A stretch of DNA of 64,000 bases from Dictyostelium discoideum (lineage: Eukaryota): contig CM000152.2 in the NCBI GenBank assembly GCA_000004695.1, positions 672,001 to 736,000 on the forward strand, read 5' to 3'. Below, in pieces: positions 3,575 to 62,017 of this stretch (the first letter of the stretch is position 1; every line of letters starts with the position of its first letter). Below the pieces are notes generated by a model that did not search any database, was not told where the DNA came from, and worked only from the letters and a program-made list of their open reading frames with translations. Made by a program: the position numbers and the translations under genes.

Positions 3575-3815
3575 TAAACCATTTCTTTAAAGAAATAATT
3601 TTCCCAAGATTTTTTTTTTTTTTTTACTTTTTTTTTTATTTTATATTTTTTCAAATTAAAACAGTGGTGTTTTTGATATTCCCACATCAGGTGATAATAA
3701 ATAAAATCAAAAAAAAAAAAAAAATCAAAAAAAAAAAAAAATAAATTACTTTCTTTGTTGGTGCCCTAAAATTAACCAAATAAAAAATAAACCAAAGAAA
3801 AAAAAAAAAATATGC

Positions 3816-37647: not shown

Positions 37648-37957
37648 TTAAAAATCAATTAAAATTTCAATATTTTGATCAGGATGATAAGATTCAATAG
37701 CTTGTTTACAATGTTCTAATAATTCTTTTAAATGATGTAAACTATATGATGCTTTTATTCTTTCTTGTTCATCCCAATCATATTGAAGTGTATCTCTTTT
37801 AATTTTAAATGGTTTTTGTCTATAATAAATTGAAATAATTGGTACACCTGCTATATCACCAGGGAATTTTTCTTTATATTCCATAGTAGATTGATCTATA
37901 AAATAATATAATACATTTTTATCTTTTGAAAATAATTGTTCAATATTTGATGCTCTA

Positions 37958-38010
<53 letters not shown>

Positions 38011-38709
38011 TGATGATGTTAGTGCATGTTTATTTATCTCAGTGTACGTATGTGTGTATAAATGAAATGAAATATTTGAAAATAAAGAATAATATTAAAA
38101 CACAACATACAAATTTCTAGATTGAAAATACCAATCAACACAATGAACCATAAAAATAATATGAGAAGGATCATCATATGCAAACTGCATTGCTTGTTCT
38201 AATGGAGTGAATTGAATTGATTTTGAAAATTTAATTCTTTGTTTATTTACAACACTATTATATAACTCTTTTGGTGTTAATGCAATTGAAGTTGCCATTG
38301 AAGCTGATGAGAATTCATCATCATCACTTGAATCATCATCATCATCATAATCTTCATCGTCATCATCACTGTAATCTGTTGAACTTAATTTTGTTGAAGC
38401 TTTTTGGTTACTGATTTGTTGTGCTAATGCAGCTTGTTGTTGTGCTAATGTTTTCTCTTGTTGTTGTTTCTCTTGTTGTTGCTGTTGTTGCTGTTGTTGT
38501 AATAATGCTAATTTCTTTTTTGATAATTTCTTTGTTTTTTTAGATTTATCTTTTTCTGAAAGTTCACTCTCTTTAGTGATTATACCACTTCCTAAATTAC
38601 CAGAAGATGGTTCATCTGAAAGAAACTTCTTTAATGTATTTTTATGTAACTTTTTTAAATTTGTTTTTTTTTCTTTTTCAATCTCTTTTTCACTTTTTTT
38701 TGAACCCAT
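37648..38709 (-). CDS. Hypothetical protein, 2 exons, about 301 aa (Lys-rich N-terminus, Q-run, acidic DDDDEDYDDDDD block, conserved-looking C-terminal domain)
   Basis: Minus-strand exons 38709..38111 (donor GTATGT) and 37954..37648 (acceptor TTATTTAG). Total 906 nt = 302 codons. The 156-nt intron contains (ATT)17. C-terminal region: ...FTPLEQAMQFAYDDPSHIIFMVHCVDWYFQSRNL|LASNIEQLFSKDKNVLYYFIDQSTMEYKEKFPGDIAGVPIISIYYRQKPFKIKRDTLQYDWDEQERIKASYSLHHLKELLEHCKQAIESYHPDQNIEILIDF. Confidence 0.6.
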
Positions 38710-38841: not shown

Positions 38842-39060
38842 AAAAATATATATATTTACCAGTTTGGTATTTTAAAACAATAAAGAAATCCAAAACAAAT
38901 ATTAAGAAATTTAAAAATTAATTGATGTAAAAATCAAGTAAAAACTTTTTTTATTTATTTATTTATTTATTTTTTATTTTTTTTTTGTTTTTTTTTTTTA
39001 ATTTTATTTTATTTTTATTTTTTATTTTTTTAATTTTTTTTTTTTTTTTTTTTTTTTTTT

Positions 39061-39072
39061 TCGAGAATCGTT
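39061..39072 (+). promoter_or_regulatory. CG-containing 12-mer TCGAGAATCGTT directly 3' of a 30-nt poly(T), 129 bp upstream of the tsr1 ATG; the identical 12-mer recurs at 58832-58843 upstream of the Tra2-like gene
   Basis: Exact 12/12 match between 39061-39072 and 58832-58843. Both are on the plus strand, both sit downstream of long poly(T), and both are upstream of plus-strand genes. Confidence 0.4.
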
Positions 39073-39078
39073 CGGTTT

Positions 39079-39120
<42 letters not shown>

Positions 39121-39189
39121 ATTCTTTCTTTTTTTAAACCCTATTTTTATTTTTCCTTAAAATAAAATAAAATAAAATCAAAAAATAGG

Positions 39190-41754
39190 ATGTCAGAACA
39201 TAGACATAGATCAGGTGATTTACATCAACAAAATAAAGGATTCAAAGGAGGTAAACATGATAGTAAAGGCGCTATCAAGAGAAGAGCACAAGGTAAAATT
39301 GAAACCAATGGAGCAAGACAATCAATCAAAAATTTAGCAATTGTAAACAATAAAGATGCAATGAGACAAAAACATCAAAAATTGGTTAAATCTAAAAAGA
39401 ATGAATTATTAGAAAGAAAAAGATTAGGTTTACCAGATCAAGTTGCACCACGTGTTGTTGTAAGTTTTTTTGTTTTTTTACTTTTTTTGTTTTTTATTAT
39501 TATAATAATATTAATATATTTTTTAAAAATTTATTTTTTTTAGACAATTATTAAATTATCAGAATCATGTAATACCAAAAAAGTAAAAGAAATGTTATTA
39601 CAAAAATTTAAATTAAATATAAATACTGGTGAAATGGAAATGGATAATGAGGAAACATTAAATAATAAAAACAATAATAATGATAATTTTACAACTATTT
39701 CATTAACAAGTAAAGTTAGAATGATGTTATTAGAATGTCAAACAATGGCATACGATCAAGTTATTGAATTTTGTAAACTTTCAGATATTATATTATTTGT
39801 AATTGATGCAAATCAAGCCAAATTAAATTCTGAAGCAGAACGTATTTTCACGATTGTTAAAGCACAATCAGTGCCAACCGTGATTGAAATCATTCAAAAT
39901 TTAGATCAAACACCAATAAAGAAAAGAAATGAGTTAAAGAAATCGATTCAATCAGTTTTTCATTTTCATTTCCCAAATGAACCAAAAGTATTACCAATGG
40001 ATACAAATGATGAATGTTCTCAAGTTTTAAGATATATTGAAAATATACATGTAAATGAAATCATTTGGAGAAAAGTTCGTCCATATATGTTAATTGAGAA
40101 ATCTTCATATATTCCAGAGACTAAGGTCGTAACAATCGATGGTTTCATTAGAGGTAATAATTTAAGTGCAAAACAAATCATTCATATTCCAGATTATGGT
40201 GATTTTCAAATTGAAAAAATTGAATTAATTGATGATCCACATATTCGTAAGAAATCTTATTATACAAACAACAACAACAACAATAGCAACAATAACAATA
40301 CTGGTGGTGGTGAAATGGAACAAGATAAAAAAATTAATATTTTAGATAAGGTTGATCAAAAAGATAAAGATACACTTCAAACTTGGAATGTTCCTGATCC
40401 AATGGATAATGAACAAGCATTACCAACCGCTGAAGAAATGAAAGAAATTGAAGCAAATAAAAAAAAGAAATTAGTACCAAAAGGTACCTCAGGTTATCAA
40501 TCATCTTGGTATTTAGATAATGAATCTGATGAAGAAGAAGAAAATTTTGAAAATGAAGATTTAGATATGAATCAAGAAGAAATGGGTCAAGATAAAGAAG
40601 AAGAAATGGGTGAAGAAGAAGAAATGGGTGAAGAAGAAGAGGAAGAAGAAGAAGGACAAGAAGAATTAGAAGAAGTTAAAGAAAGTAATAAATGGAAAGG
40701 TATTAAACATAAATCACAAATTACAGATGAGTTATTAAAAGATAGTGATGATGAGGATGATGATGAAAATAAAGAAGAACAATCAGAAGATGAAGATGAA
40801 GATGAACGTAAACAATTACAACAAGATGAAATTTTATATCCAGATGAAGTTGATACACCCGGTAATGTACCATCACGTATTAGATTTTCAAAATTCAGAG
40901 GATTGAAATCATTCCGTTCTTCACCATGGGATGTTAAAGAGAATTTACCAATTGATTATGCAAAGATTTTCCAATTCCATTCATTCAATCAATCAATGAG
41001 AGCATCGATTGCTATTCTTGATAATGCACCAGCCAAACCAGATATGTATGTTAGAATTCATTTAGTTAATGGTCCAAAACAATTGGTTGAGCGTAATACC
41101 ACCGCGATCACCACCAAGCCAGAGGTTGCCGTCGGTCTTTACCGTTATGAAAATAAGATTTCATTATTACATTTCTCTGTTGAAAAACATAAATCCTATG
41201 AAGAGACTGTTAGATCTAAAGAAGAGGTTTACTTTCACTTTGGTTGGAGAAAATTCTCAACTTCACCAATCTATTCAATTAGTTCACCAAATTGTGATAA
41301 ACAAAAGTTTGAAAAGTTTTTATTACCTGCTAGAAATACAATGGCAACAATCTATGGTCCAATCACTTATCCACCAGCTCCATTATTAATTTTCAATGGT
41401 AAGGATTGTAATGAATTGGTTGCAACTGGTTATCTCTCAAGTGTAAATCCTGATCGTATCATTTGTAAACGTATCATTCTCACTGGTGTTATTGCTAAAT
41501 CAATCTCAAAGAAATTCGTAACCGTTAAAGATATGTTTTATTATCCAGAAGATATTAATTGGTTTAAAAAAGTTGAACTTTATACAAAGATGGGTCGTGT
41601 TGGTCATATAAAAGAACCTTTAGGTACTCATGGTCGTATGAAATGTCAATTCGATGGTACTATGAATCAACAAGATACAGTTTGTATGAATCTTTATAAA
41701 AGAGTTTATCCAAAATGGATTAAAGATGATTCATCTTTATTAAAATTAGAATAA
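39190..41754 (+). CDS. tsr1: Pre-rRNA-processing / 40S ribosome biogenesis protein TSR1 homolog (Bms1/Tsr1 family), 2 exons, about 826 aa
   Basis: Exons 39190..39459 (donor GTAAGT at 39460) and 39544..41754 (acceptor ...TTTTTTTAG). N-terminus MSEHRHRSGDLHQQNKGFKGGKHDSKGAIKRRAQGKIE, compared with human TSR1 MAAHRPGPLKQQNKAHKGGRHRGRGSAQRDGKGRL. A central acidic insert (EEEMGEEEEMGEEEEEEEEGQEE). C-terminal AARP2CN/DUF663-type region (...RFSKFRGLKSFRSSPWDVKENLP...GWRKFSTSPIYS...). Confidence 0.8.
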
Positions 41755-50600: not shown

Positions 50601-52035
50601 TTAATGAACACCATTTAAAGTTGGTGAAAAATTATTTGTTTGTGGTTTTAAAGGATTAACAATAGGTACATTAATATGTTGGATTGCCATTGCAACAATA
50701 CTTGTCATATTAACTTCAGGACCGAAAACTTTGATTGGGATATGTAATTTATGACCAATTTCTCTCATATGTTGTAAACCCGATTGATAATTTGGACCAC
50801 CTCTTCTAACGAAAATGGAAAGATTTGATTTAATGATATCATCATGATACTCTTTAATTGCTCTAATGATACCTTTGAAAGTGGCAGCCACATCAGTAAA
50901 ATTAGCAATACCACCACCAATTAATAATGCTCTTGGTCTAGAATCAGGATTTCTGGTTGCCAATGAAATTAAAGTGCATGCATATTTATGAGTATCCTCT
51001 TCATTTGGATCACCGGAATATTCACCATAATTTCCAAGCTCATTACCAAAACCTAAATCAGCAACAGTGTCAGCATAGATAACAGAGGCACCACCTCCGG
51101 CAACCATTGCCCATATTCTTCCTTTTGGATTTAATAAAGTTAATTTCAAGGATGCACCTGTTTTTTCATCAATTTCATTTACATAGGTTTCCTCTGGATA
51201 TAAACTTCTACCAAATGGTTGTGGAAATTGAACTGGTTCGCCATCAACTAACCAACGACCACCACATTTAAATGATGCACATTCATCAACTTCACCTCTT
51301 GCATCTAATGGATAAGGTTTACCTTCTGCATCTAATGTAAATGGATTCATTTCAATAAAATGGAATGATAAATCTATTATGAATTTTTAAAAAAATAAAA
51401 TAAAATAAATTAATAAATTATTAAAATATTAAAATATTAATTATTAATTATTTACCATTAAATAATTTATAAACATTTCTAATAAAATCAATAACATATT
51501 CTCTATTTTGTACAGAAGAATCAATTATTGTATGTAAATCAAATTTATCAATTGATTCACCATATGGAATTTCAATTGAGGAGACTTTATCCCAATTTTC
51601 TTCGATTTCCATACCACCACAATTTGAAAATGAAATTCTATTTGATTCTCTTTCTGCAGTGATTGAAAGGTAGTATTCTTCGGTATGTGGTAAAAATGGC
51701 TCAACAATGAAATGAGTAACCAATCCTGATTTACCTCCAATTTCAACTGGTTTATTTATTTTCTCTTTAATGAATTTATCGGCTTCTTCCAAAGTTGCAT
51801 TTAATAAAACTAAACCATTTTTACCTCTTTTTCCAAATAACATATCTGGTTTAACTACGAGTTTGGAATTGTTGACCCATATATTATCAATTGATTTCGA
51901 TAATTCAATAAGAGTTGGTGTTGTTGGTGAAACTTGAATCATCTTTAAATTTAATTTAGATCCATTGCATGATAATGCAAAATTATTTTTAATAATATAT
52001 TTTGTTGAATATTCTCTTAATTTCTTTCTTGCCAT
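50601..52035 (-). CDS. ATP-citrate lyase subunit A-like (ACLA/ACL small subunit; ATP-grasp + CoA-ligase N-terminal half), 2 exons, about 450 aa
   Basis: Minus-strand exons 52035..51456 (donor GTAAAT, phase 1) and 51373..50601 (acceptor ...CATAATAG). Near-colinear with plant [23 protein letters not shown], compared with Arabidopsis [33 protein letters not shown]...[19 protein letters not shown]...[16 protein letters not shown]...[28 protein letters not shown]...[33 protein letters not shown]...[28 protein letters not shown]...[14 protein letters not shown]. Confidence 0.9.
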
Positions 52036-54195: not shown

Positions 54196-56064
54196 ATGAC
54201 AAATAGTAATTTTAATCATGGTAATCATGGTAGTAATTTACCAGCAAGGTTATTTACAAAACAATCACAGGCATTAATTTATAATTATAAAGAAGCAGCA
54301 GTCCAAAGAATGTTAGATTTTGATAATGTTTCACAAAGGGATACACCATCAGTGGGTGGGTTAATTCATCCAGGATCCGATGGTGGTATGTATAAAGCAT
54401 TCTTTGGATTTAAAGAGTTGGTAATACCAGTTTATAATTCAGTATCAGAAGCATGTCAACAATGTCCAAATGCAGATGTATTTTTAAATTTTGCATCACA
54501 TCGTTCAGCTTACCAATCATCGTTATTGGCATTAAGAGAACCATCGATTCAAACCGTTGTTATCATTGCAGAGGGTGTACCAGAGAATGAAGCACGTTCA
54601 TTGATATCAATTGCAAAGAAATTGGGTAAGGTTATAATCGGACCTGCAACTGTTGGTGGCATTCAAGCTGGTTGTTTCAAAATTGGTAATACCGCAGGTA
54701 CAATCGTTTATATTATGGCTTGTAAATTGTATAGATCAGGTTCAGTTGGCTTCGTTTCAAAGAGTGGTGGTTTGTCCAATGAAATGTATAATGTACTCTC
54801 AAGATGTACCGATGGTATCTATGAAGGTATCGCAATTGGAGGTGATGCTTTCCCTGGCTCAACACTCACAGACCATGCCCTACGTTATGAGAAATTGCCA
54901 GAGGTTCAAATGATTGTTATATTGGGTGAGTTGGGTGGATGGGACGAGTATGGAATTGTGGAGGCATTGAAAAAGGGTGAAATTACAAAACCAATTTGTG
55001 CATGGGTATCTGGTACTGTTGCAAAGATTTTCCCAACCGAAGTACAATTTGGTCATGCAGGTGCAAAATCTGGTGGTGAAACTGAATCTGCCGATGCAAA
55101 GAATAAAGCTTTACGTGAGGCTGGTGCAGTTGTACCAACTTCTTTTGAAGATTTCTCAAATGTTATTGCCGCTACCTATGCCAAACTTCAATCAAAGGGT
55201 TTGGTTAAACCAGTTGAAGAACCAACACCACCTGAATTACCATTAGATTTCAAGACTGCAGTTAAGGCTGGTAAAGTTAGAAAGCCAACATCAATTATCT
55301 CTACAATTTGTGATGATCGTGGTGATGAACTTTCCTATGCAGGTGTACCAATTAGTGAAGTATGTAAAGAGCAATATAATATGGGTGATGTGATTGGCTT
55401 ACTTTGGTTCAAGAGAAAGTTACCACCATACGCTTCCAAGTTCTTTGAAATGTGTTTGAAACTAGTTGCCGATCATGGTCCATGTGTTAGTGGTGCTCAT
55501 AATACAATCGTTGCTGCTCGTGCTGGTAAGGATTTAGTATCAAGTCTTGTTTCAGGTTTATTAACAATTGGACCACGTTTTGGTGGTGCCATCGATGATA
55601 GTGCTCGTGTATTCCAAGATGCAGTCGATAACAATTTACAACCATCACAATTTGTTGAAGGTATGAAATCAAAGGGTAAAAGAATTCCAGGTATTGGTCA
55701 TTTAATTAAATCTGCCGATGAAATCGATAAAAGAGTAGTATTATTAAAAGATTATGCTTTCACTCATTTCTCATCAACAAAATATTTAGAATACGCATTG
55801 GAAGTTGAAAAATATACCCTTCAAAAAGCAAATAATTTAATTTTAAATGTTGATGGTTGTATTGGTGTATTATTTTTAGATTTATTACATTCATCCGGTT
55901 TATTCACTCAACATGAAATTAAAGAAATTATAGATGTTGGTTATTTAAATGGTTTCTTTATTGTTGGTAGAAGTGTTGGTTTAATCGGTCACGCATTAGA
56001 TCAACGTAGAAATAAACAAGGACTTTATAGACACCAAGCTGATGATGTTCATTATGCCCTTTAA
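54196..56064 (+). CDS. ATP-citrate lyase subunit B-like (ACLB/ACL large subunit; CoA-binding + citryl-CoA lyase/citrate-synthase-like half), 622 aa, intronless
   Basis: Complete ORF. Near-colinear with plant ACLB and with human ACLY residues about 480-1100. LFTKQSQALIYNYKEAAVQRMLDFD...IIAEGVPE...IGPATVGGIQAGCFKIGNTAGT...VSKSGGLSNEMYN...GIAIGGDAFPGSTL...VQFGHAGAK (catalytic-His region)...LLWFKRKLP...ADHGPCVSGAHNTIVAARAGKDLVSSLVSGLLTIGPRFGGAIDD...NVDGCIGVLFLDLL...GLYRH. Confidence 0.92.
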   Translation: MTNSNFNHGNHGSNLPARLFTKQSQALIYNYKEAAVQRMLDFDNVSQRDTPSVGGLIHPGSDGGMYKAFFGFKELVIPVYNSVSEACQQCPNADVFLNFASHRSAYQSSLLALREPSIQTVVIIAEGVPENEARSLISIAKKLGKVIIGPATVGGIQAGCFKIGNTAGTIVYIMACKLYRSGSVGFVSKSGGLSNEMYNVLSRCTDGIYEGIAIGGDAFPGSTLTDHALRYEKLPEVQMIVILGELGGWDEYGIVEALKKGEITKPICAWVSGTVAKIFPTEVQFGHAGAKSGGETESADAKNKALREAGAVVPTSFEDFSNVIAATYAKLQSKGLVKPVEEPTPPELPLDFKTAVKAGKVRKPTSIISTICDDRGDELSYAGVPISEVCKEQYNMGDVIGLLWFKRKLPPYASKFFEMCLKLVADHGPCVSGAHNTIVAARAGKDLVSSLVSGLLTIGPRFGGAIDDSARVFQDAVDNNLQPSQFVEGMKSKGKRIPGIGHLIKSADEIDKRVVLLKDYAFTHFSSTKYLEYALEVEKYTLQKANNLILNVDGCIGVLFLDLLHSSGLFTQHEIKEIIDVGYLNGFFIVGRSVGLIGHALDQRRNKQGLYRHQADDVHYAL

Positions 56065-58084: not shown

Positions 58085-59118
58085 TTTTTATATAAACTAT
58101 ATATTTTATAATTATTATCCAATAAATTCTCAATTTTATTCCCTCCTGTTGTTCTTCAAAATAAAAAAACAATTGAAAAAAATAAATGATAAATAATTAA
58201 ATTCTAAAATAAAATTTTTGATTAAAAAAAAAAAAAAAAAAAAAAAATTCAACAAATAGAATGCATTTCATTTTTTTTATATGATTGGGTGCTCTCTATT
58301 TTTGTATACCAAATTCAAATTAAAAAAAAAATAAAAAAAAAAATAAAAAAAATGAAAATATTTTTTTTTTTTTTTTTATTTTTTTGTTTCAGATTTGGAT
58401 GTTTTTGTTAATATTTACGTCGCAATTAACCTAAAAAAAAAAAAAGTTAAGTGTTTTTTTGATCACTTTACTTTCACCTTTATAATTTTTATTAAATTGT
58501 AAAGTGTTGTGGAGTGAATTTTTATTTTTTTTATTTTTTTTTAATCTTTTTCCTTTTTTTCCTTCTTTTTTTTGATTACTAAAATAATTTAGTAAAAAAA
58601 AAAATAATAAATGGAATTTTGATACCAAAATAATTTCTAAAAAAAGGAATTGGAAATATCTTGCACTTGGCAATTAACTGAAAATTTTTTATTTTTTAAT
58701 TTTTTTTTTTTTTTTTTTTTTTTTCAATTTTTTTAATTTTTTTTAATTTTTTTTCTTTTTTTTTACTTAAAAAATTTTTCTAATTTTTTTAATTTTTTTT
58801 TTTTTTTTTTTTTTTTTTCATTTAATAACTCTCGAGAATCGTTAATATATTTATAATTATATTTATATATATATAAAATAAAAAAAAAAGATTTTTTTTT
58901 TTTTTTCTATTTTTTGTTATTTTAAAGTTTATTTATTCATTTTAATAATATTTGGATAAATTATTATTTTTTTGTTTTGTGTATTACTGTATTTTTTAAA
59001 GAGAAAAATAAAAAAAAAAAAATTTTGCATTCGCTCTTTTTTTTTTCGTTTTTATAAAAATAAAATATTAAAATCATTATAAATCATATATAAATATAAT
59101 AATAATAAATAGTATATT

Positions 59119-60534
<1,416 letters not shown>

Positions 60535-60893: not shown

Positions 60894-62017
60894 TTAAAAT
60901 TTAAATACAAATACTTCAAAACAAAAGAACATTCAAGTCTTTTGAAACTTTTAATAAAAATCATTGAACAATAGTAGTTAGTTAGTTAAAGTTATTCACT
61001 TCAAGAGGAGGAAATTTAAGAAATTCATCTCGACGAAGGAAATTCAAATCTTTTTTTTTTTTATTTTTTTATTTTTTATTATTTTGAAAACTTAATATTA
61101 ATCCACTTTTTTTTTAATGGAGTTTATAAGAAAAAAAAAACAAAAAAACAAAGAAACATAAAAATAAAGAATAATAAAGAATAATAAATAATAGTGAAAA
61201 GATGAAGATATGAATAATTAAACCAACAAGATTATGAAATTTAGATGAATTTTTAAACGATCAAATCATCTCGTTAATTTGAAATGATGTCCCTTAGTGC
61301 CGATAATGAATTTTAAAAAAAAAAATAAAACAAAATAGTAATAATACAATTTAACAAATTTGTATATGTACCAAATCGAATTTTTACAAATTATAAAACC
61401 TTTTAACTGTATTCTTTTGGATCCAAGATTTTAAAGCTTTTTTTTTTTTTTTTTTTTTTTTCTTTTTTTTTTTTTTTGGTCCAAGATTTTATTTTAAAAA
61501 AATATTGGAAATAGATCTCGTTGGTAAACATAAAATATTACTAATTTGTAACCATAAAAATATATATATATATTTTTTTTTTTTATTTTTTTTTATTTAA
61601 TTATTTTTAAAATTTAAAAATAAAAAAAAAATTGGGTGTGGGTAGTAATAATTACAAATCCAAATCTCAGATCGAGTTATTATAGATTCAATGTCATTAT
61701 GATAATAGCAATTAAAAAAAAAAAAAAAAAAAAAAAACAGAACATAAAAAATAAAAAAAATAAAAATAAAATTTTTTTTTTTTCACACACAAACCATCAC
61801 ACCATGATGTCAATTTTATTTTTTTTATTTTGGAATTTAAAATTTTAATTTTAATTTTTTTTTATTTTTTTATTTTTTTATTTTTTTTTTACAACAGATA
61901 GATATAATTTTTTTTTTATTACCCCTTCACGAATCCATAAAATATTAAAAATAGTCTATATAAAAATAAATCAATATAAATAAATTCAAAACTTGGATAT
62001 CAATTTAAATTTCATTG

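Follow-up and report, generated by a model that had tools for sequence, protein, structure and literature searches.

The tsr1 and Tra2-like promoters of Dictyostelium discoideum share a 12-nucleotide sequence within two conserved islands that may be separate elements

What does it mean when two promoters of an extremely A/T-rich genome carry the same 12 nucleotides, and with them two CpG dinucleotides each? The question is raised by TCGAGAATCGTT, which occurs exactly twice, both times on the plus strand (Table 1), in a 64-kb window of D. discoideum AX4 (by the window we mean the whole stretch of DNA that was analysed, 64,000 nucleotides). No further match is found anywhere in the window when one mismatch is allowed. 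The first copy is 129 bp upstream of the ATG of tsr1, a gene recognized by the Pfam domains RIBIOP_C, AARP2CN and Tsr1_G-like. The second is 287 bp upstream of the ATG of a gene for an RRM protein with RS and RGG-like tails, whose best matches outside the dictyostelids are transformer-2 homologues and which we refer to as Tra2-like (tra2). Each copy is oriented as the gene that follows it. A preliminary description of this DNA had reported the match, its sense orientation and its distances from the two ATGs (39190 and 59119), and had taken both genes to be RNA-related; all of this is borne out here. Its description of the promoters as unlinked is loose, since the two genes lie 19.8 kb apart on one chromosome.

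The window has a G+C content of 22.7% and contains 416 CpG dinucleotides (observed/expected about 0.5), and the proteins of its acly and saposin-like genes are exact matches to DDB_G0278345 and DDB_G0278347. CpG is rare in intergenic DNA, as had been supposed: the non-ORF sequence, 16.7 kb in all, has 55. Only five places in the noncoding DNA of the 64 kb form islands that hold two CpGs inside 12 nt, two of these islands sharing the 12-mer, and TCGAGAATCGTT is the sole 12-mer with at least two CpGs that is repeated in the window. The shared sequence is exactly 12 nt long, and both flanks are mismatched between the copies, the site-specific flank being TCGTTCGG at tsr1 and AACTCTCGAG at tra2. 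A dispersed repeat or transposon fragment is ruled out by these mismatched flanks, by the count of two copies at up to one mismatch and by the number of near-copies in the window at up to three mismatches (37 observed, 38.1 expected, and hence no excess); there is neither extended homology nor any set of diverged copies beyond chance.

Table 1. Features of the two promoters and their genes, in window coordinates
Feature	Position	Strand	Remarks
12-mer copy 1 (TCGAGAATCGTT)	39061..39072	+	tsr1 / divergent-gene intergenic region
T28 run	39034..39061	+	last base is the first base of copy 1
Conserved CpG-containing island CG..A.TCGTTCGGTTTT	39062..39079	+	flanked by two long T runs; five-species alignment
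T36 run	39084..39119	+	3' end predicts main tsr1 start at about 39121 by the poly-T rule (PMC3371697)
AAACCCTA	39136..39143	+	within second conserved proximal stretch, GATTCTTTC...TTTTTTAAACCCTATTTTTATTT, 3' of T36
tsr1 coding region, 826 aa	39190..41754	+	exon 1 39190-39459, exon 2 39544-41754
Divergent 301-aa gene, 5' part (exon 1, intron, exon 2 start)	37955..38709	-	ATG 38709; exon 2 runs below 37955
12-mer copy 2 (TCGAGAATCGTT)	58832..58843	+	intergenic region 5' of Tra2-like gene
T26 run	58793..58818	+	13-nt spacer CATTTAATAACTC between run and copy 2
Conserved block TAACTCTCGAGAATCGTTAATAT	58826..58848	+	invariant save position 58838 and the D. citrinum GA insertion
TATAAAAT box (58872-58879), A10, T15 (58892-58906)	58872..58906	+	canonical Dictyostelium core promoter (PMC3371697)
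Tra2-like gene	59119..60534	+	splice model exons 59119-59439, 59681-59890, 59977-60062, 60171-60534

The core promoter described for Dictyostelium (Chang et al. 2012, PMC3371697) has a long sense-strand poly-T tract whose 3' end falls about 2 bp before the start site, with or without a TATAAAWW box located about 29 bp 5' of that start. This architecture is present at the two loci, as T28 and T36 at tsr1 and as TATAAAAT followed by T15 at tra2, and the 12-mer itself lies outside it; as in the published promoters, non-homopolymer islands stand amid sense-strand poly-T upstream of the start. At tra2, where copy 2 is part of a 1034-bp intergenic region 3' of the saposin-like gene and sits 29-40 bp upstream of the TATA box, the likeness extends to a TATA box about 29 bp and a T-run end about 2 bp upstream of the predicted start. 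The tsr1 promoter differs in that no TATAAAWW is found in its 480-bp intergenic region. That region is shared with a divergent 301-aa gene, an arrangement that is syntenic in L001, L002, L010, L011 and L012 (see below for these loci); the divergent gene itself gave only a sub-threshold Nop14-like match, in its low-complexity region. With the tsr1 start predicted at about 39121 and the Tra2-like start at about 58908, copy 1 would be at about -60 to -49 and copy 2 at about -76 to -65. Both copies are thus likely to be upstream of the most probable transcription start sites, at similar predicted distances (about 50-75 bp) and in the same gene-relative orientation.

The copies had been described as following runs of T30 and T28 directly. 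The runs are in fact T28, which includes the first T of the motif, and T26, and direct adjacency holds at tsr1 but not at tra2, where a 13-nt spacer intervenes. Because long T runs adjoin any promoter motif in this genome, the association with poly(T) carries little information. It does bear on one reading, in which the element acts in RNA or as an initiator: T28 and T26 would define upstream starts, and the 12-mer, near the 5' end of a long leader, would influence initiation, stability or translation. The rule that sense poly-T 3' ends lie about 2 bp upstream of starts (PMC3371697), the presence of both copies on the sense strand and the position of the two runs (T28 stops on the motif's first base, T26 stops 13 nt short of it) are consistent with such a role. 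However, the T36 run nearer the tsr1 ATG and the TATA box with T15 at tra2 fit the canonical core better, and they would leave the motif upstream of the start; moreover, the motif abuts the upstream T run at one site (0 nt) and stands 13 nt from it at the other, there is no Rfam family match, and the motif forms only a trivial 3-bp stem. We consider this reading very improbable.

We compared the tsr1 loci of D. cf. discoideum (L001), D. dimigraforme (L002), D. firmibasis (L011), D. citrinum (L010), D. purpureum (L003) and Polysphondylium violaceum (L012), together with the acly-saposin-tra2 loci of the same species (L009, L005, L006, L007 plus L008, L004 and L013, respectively), which in the close species were located from cluster members of two adjacent genes, acly and the saposin-like one. 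The D. discoideum complex keeps synteny at both loci. Both sites read TCGAGAATCGTT in AX4 and in D. cf. discoideum. D. firmibasis has TCGCGAATCGTT at tsr1 and TCGAGAATCGTT at tra2, D. citrinum has TCGCCAATCGTT at tsr1 and TCGAGAGAATCGTT at tra2 (the 12-mer being interrupted by a 2-nt insertion, GA), and D. dimigraforme has CCGCGATTCGTT and TCGAGATTCGTT. Mean identity over the 12-mer between AX4 and D. firmibasis, D. citrinum and D. dimigraforme is 0.83 at tsr1 and 0.97 at tra2. In the same comparison the intergenic regions around the sites score 0.39 when G/C positions are counted and about 0.5 when non-homopolymer positions are. Across the four other species of the complex, each copy is among the best-conserved non-homopolymer stretches of its own intergenic region, and what surrounds it is fast-diverging T-rich DNA. 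Because the conserved islands stand out from such DNA, both sites are probably functional and make credible promoter-proximal footprints. They resemble phylogenetic footprints in general, in that islands are conserved in close species where the A/T-rich surroundings diverge.

The same comparison indicates how the perfect match arose. Position 4 of the tsr1 site is C in all three outgroups (D. firmibasis, D. citrinum and D. dimigraforme), so that the ancestral pair would have matched at 11 of 12 positions (TCGCGAATCGTT at one site, TCGAGAATCGTT at the other), with a C-to-A change in the D. discoideum lineage completing the match. The 12/12 identity is derived and is confined to the D. discoideum lineage. 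Furthermore, the 12-mer does not coincide with what is conserved at either site. At tsr1, just one G/C-containing block of at least 6 nt is invariant throughout in the intergenic region, namely TCGTTCGGTTTT (39068-39079), and of the 12-mer it covers only the last five bases. At tra2 the invariant sequence consists of TAACTCTCGAGA and TCGTTAATAT, which are two of the nine invariant blocks in that promoter and lie in a conserved block (58826-58848) that contains the 8-bp palindrome TCTCGAGA; because the promoter has nine such blocks, the conserved block there is not unusual. The invariant blocks thus differ in the direction in which they reach, with TCGTTCGGTTTT at tsr1 as against TAACTCTCGAGA plus TCGTTAATAT at tra2. 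The only part that is both common and invariant is CGNNANTCGTT, with the D. citrinum insertion excepted: positions C2, G3, A6, T8, C9, G10, T11 and T12 do not vary at either site in five species, save that the insertion at tra2 in D. citrinum shifts C2 and G3.

How improbable the match is depends on the null that is chosen. Markov simulation of the whole window (orders 1 and 3) gave P = 0.04-0.07 for at least one repeated double-CpG 12-mer. A noncoding-only null gave P = 0-0.0013 for an exact match, 0.004-0.013 at up to one mismatch and 0.02-0.06 at up to two; this null yields about fourfold fewer double-CpG windows than are observed, and rescaling for that raises the values to about 0.003-0.02, about 0.05-0.2 and more than 0.3, respectively. 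Because the noncoding null under-produces double-CpG windows, we take about 0.003-0.02 as the realistic exact-match P; over all choices of null the exact-match chance per window is about 0.003-0.07. Per 34-Mb genome, about 0.3-1.6 exact copies of the 12-mer are expected. The exact AX4 match is nominally unlikely for one window; it is not unlikely over a genome trawl of about 530 windows. We note also that the AX4 match is a biased sample because it was found by selection on AX4, and that the sister species are less biased in this respect. There the similarity between the sites is 11/12, 10/12 and, in D. citrinum, a gapped match that shares only AATCGTT, so that a perfect match chosen in one genome shrinks to 10-11/12 in its sister species. 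The earlier judgement that a chance double occurrence is improbable accordingly stands, nominally, for the exact match but not for the ancestral similarity, which at 11/12 or 10/12 is not unlikely by chance.

Could the whole pattern, then, be pure chance in non-functional DNA, with the conservation reflecting nothing but a short divergence time? A whole-window P of 0.04-0.07, the many such pairs to be expected over some 530 windows and near-copies at chance level are what this reading predicts for the match itself. What speaks against it is the conservation: identity is 0.39 at G/C positions of the surroundings, whose distal parts are barely alignable, and 0.83-0.97 at the sites, and rare, mutable CpGs have been kept at both sites in five species. 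We regard pure chance as very improbable.

The reading that we prefer, at a probability of roughly 0.55, is that each promoter has a conserved promoter-proximal element of its own, separate from the other, and that the perfect identity of the two in AX4 is largely, or at least partly, coincidental. Each would be a short cis-element under selective maintenance, most probably a transcription-factor binding site, that forms a small information island in the nucleosome-poor, poly(dT)-rich type of promoter typical of Dictyostelium. Island 1 would operate in the TATA-less bidirectional tsr1 promoter and island 2 about 30-40 bp upstream of the Tra2-like TATA box, and the single C-to-A change in the D. 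discoideum lineage would have completed a pair that was already similar in the ancestor. The islands would presumably be bound by protein, and the two sites need not be bound by the same factor. Of the shared cis element that the preliminary description had put forward, the cis-element part is sustained, inasmuch as the conserved islands behave as such elements; the shared part fares less well, given that the 12-mer is not the conserved unit, that its identity is derived and that the conserved blocks differ.

A tentative alternative is that both islands are sites for one transcription factor, with a core of about CGNGAWTCGTT (minimally GAWTCGTT), that co-regulates tsr1, the Tra2-like gene and possibly more. 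The motif would act from the proximal promoter in a fixed orientation and might have further growth or RNA-metabolism targets in the D. discoideum species complex. The sites agree with each other fully in AX4 and in D. cf. discoideum (12/12), at all but one position in D. firmibasis (11/12) and at all but two in D. dimigraforme (10/12). This is consistent with a single factor, as are the eight motif positions that are invariant at both sites in five species (the D. citrinum insertion excepted), the common orientation and similar predicted distance from the start, the presence of the 12-mer in two of the five noncoding double-CpG islands and the RNA-related nature of both genes. Also suggestive is D. 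dimigraforme, which has A-to-T at motif position 7 in both sites, turning GAATCGTT into GATTCGTT (L002 3903-3914 and L005 11709-11720). This double change may be a hint of factor-site co-evolution or a coincidence; by a rough estimate its chance probability is about 0.15, and it is not significant.

Set against a single factor are, in the first place, the derived state of the 12/12 identity and the D. citrinum sites, TCGCCAATCGTT and TCGAGAGAATCGTT, which have only AATCGTT in common. The short core is frequent in the window (AATCGTT 17 times and GAWTCGTT 6 times, mostly within ORFs), near-copies show no excess there, and for the invariant shared part CGNNANTCGTT the chance that two double-CpG islands match is P of about 0.1-0.2 by analytic estimate, alongside the value of about 0.15 for the coincident A-to-T. 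No third promoter with the motif is found, since the 213 kb from 7 genomes hold no non-orthologous copy of CGNNAWTCGTT, and nothing is detectable in D. purpureum or P. violaceum. A narrower form of the idea, which we think unlikely, is a lineage-restricted factor motif of about CGNGAWTCGTT, held in fixed orientation 50-80 bp upstream of the starts of growth or RNA-metabolism genes, with the A7-to-T shift at several D. dimigraforme targets. If true, it would be a case of factor-site co-evolution in an extremely A/T-rich genome with very few known promoter motifs.

The preliminary description had suggested a comparison with the orthologous promoters of D. purpureum. The motif is not kept there: with a weight matrix from the group-4 sites, the tsr1 and tra2 promoters of D. 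purpureum and P. violaceum gave no significant match (P = 0.07-0.8 against shuffles). Three likenesses in these two species were noticed by eye and were set aside as the product of flexible post-hoc matching. The P. violaceum tsr1 promoter has CACGCGATACGAGAGTTATTG about 100 bp upstream of the ATG (L012 about 2900-2920), in which CGCGATACG on the plus strand resembles the firmibasis tsr1 core CGCGAATCG, the weight matrix being not significant, and AATAACTCTCG on the minus strand is an 11-mer that recurs exactly in the sequence 5' of the tra2 copy in AX4. D. purpureum has A24-CCGAACACCCTCGG-T5. A further observation is that at L013 1388-1412 (P. violaceum) and L003 about 3765-3805 (the D. purpureum tsr1 promoter), an A-run is followed by CCCGAACGA or CCGAAC... 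and then a T-run. The L013 stretch has a GRAM-domain gene on one side and, on the other, a 144-aa gene call that lies upstream of tra2; it contains AATCGTTCGG on its minus strand, 10 nt that are found unchanged in the tsr1 island. GTTCGG beside homopolymer runs may be a recurrent word.

Do the islands correspond to any known motif or RNA family? An RNA gene or tRNA-associated element is ruled out, as ARAGORN found 0 tRNA genes, Rfam gave 0 matches at the gathering threshold, and the B-box GGTTCGANNCC is absent from the 14 tsr1 and tra2 promoters. In yeast, the ribosome-biogenesis regulon, with genes such as TSR1, is marked by the PAC (GCGATGAGCT) and RRPE (AAAAATTTT) motifs. The regulon idea of the preliminary description follows the same concept, of short promoter motifs common to ribosome-biogenesis genes, but a PAC core (CGATGAG or GATGAGC) occurs in none of the 14 tsr1 and tra2 promoters from 7 genomes, and RRPE-like A/T strings are uninformative in intergenic DNA of 14% G+C. 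The E2F site (TTTSSCGC) is likewise missing from the 14 promoters.

The heat-shock element (nTTCnnGAAnnTTCn) takes three or more alternating nGAAn units in register. In three of the five species (AX4, D. cf. discoideum, D. firmibasis) the tsr1 copy, as TTCGAGAA or TTCGCGAA, forms a dyad, TTCnnGAA. It differs in having no third unit in register, the dyad is lost at this position in D. citrinum and D. dimigraforme, and tra2 has CTC rather than TTC; neither TTCNNGAANNTTC nor GAANNTTCNNGAA, the three-unit forms, occurs in the 14 promoters. The nearest analogy in the literature, and a resemblance only, is the vertebrate CGCG element or BANP motif, TCTCGCGAGA. The likeness lies in a CpG-containing, partly palindromic element (TCTCGAGA at tra2 and TTCGCGAA at the firmibasis tsr1 site), in the TATA-less bidirectional tsr1 promoter and in growth- or RNA-related target genes. 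The decamer itself, however, is missing from the window, where TCGCGA occurs 0 times, and the best promoter matches have 2 mismatches in 10. We found nothing on the 12-mer in the literature on Dictyostelium promoter-motif surveys.

To our knowledge, few cis-regulatory motifs have been described for Dictyostelium housekeeping and growth genes, and we know of no defined equivalent there of the yeast PAC/RRPE or animal E-box ribosome-biogenesis code. If the shared core were the site of one factor, it would provide an entry point to a regulon and a small case of site and factor co-evolution. On present evidence the gain is more modest: a pair of conserved islands, clearly delimited within their promoters, each of which would be a good target for mutagenesis in a reporter.

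Other features of the two promoters may be noted. The sequence AAACCCTA, 54 bp 5' of the tsr1 ATG, matches exactly the core of the telo-box of plants, which is known from the promoters of ribosomal-protein and translation genes; it persists unchanged in D. cf. discoideum and D. firmibasis, its place being taken by AAACCTA in D. citrinum and by AAACCCAA in D. dimigraforme. In the tra2 promoter, the invariant blocks TTTTTGATCACTT (58456-58468) and TTTTTTGATTACTAAAA (58568-58584) both contain TTTTTGAT(C/T)ACT, a repeated word that makes no weaker a cis-element candidate than the 12-mer does. The remaining named invariant blocks of this promoter are TTCACCTT, GTAAAGTGTTG, AAATATCTT, ATTAACTGAAA and TTGTGTATTACTGT.

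Upstream of the coiled-coil gene, three fragments (61021, 61270 and 61515) had been listed as related to the 12-mer. They have only ATCTCG or TCGTT(AAT) in common with it and are substrings at chance level, ATCTCG occurring 6 times in the window against roughly 5 expected by a composition-based estimate. Conservation of the CpG is lacking in D. firmibasis for fragments 1 and 2, in D. dimigraforme for fragment 2 and outside AX4 for fragment 3. Fragment 1 falls in a block of about 100 bp (60940-61040) whose identity to D. firmibasis, D. citrinum and D. dimigraforme is 95%, with weaker conservation up to about 61390, A-runs on its left and T-runs on its right. The intergenic region that holds it, from the Tra2-like gene to the coiled-coil gene, is unusually long at 1.9 kb. 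The block has no gene call in any of the related genomes and no Rfam match even at E<=1; candidates for its nature are a small gene that escaped annotation, a non-coding RNA and a strong regulatory module.

The exact sequence of the spliced Tra2-like model (326 aa) is absent from the protein collection searched, and the protein search likewise missed the orthologues of the close species (gene calls of 314-370 aa in L005-L009), whose RS and RGG repeat tails vary in length among species. Long (AAT)n microsatellites occupy 59467-59590, in intron 1 of the Tra2-like gene, and 37960-38010, in the intron of the gene divergent from tsr1. Lastly, ATP-citrate lyase is encoded in the window by two divergently oriented genes (50601-52035 on the minus strand and 54196-56064 on the plus strand), one with the N-terminal ATP-grasp and citrate-binding parts and the other with the C-terminal CoA-ligase and citrate-synthase parts, and this split arrangement is kept in all dictyostelid loci that cover both genes (L005-L008).
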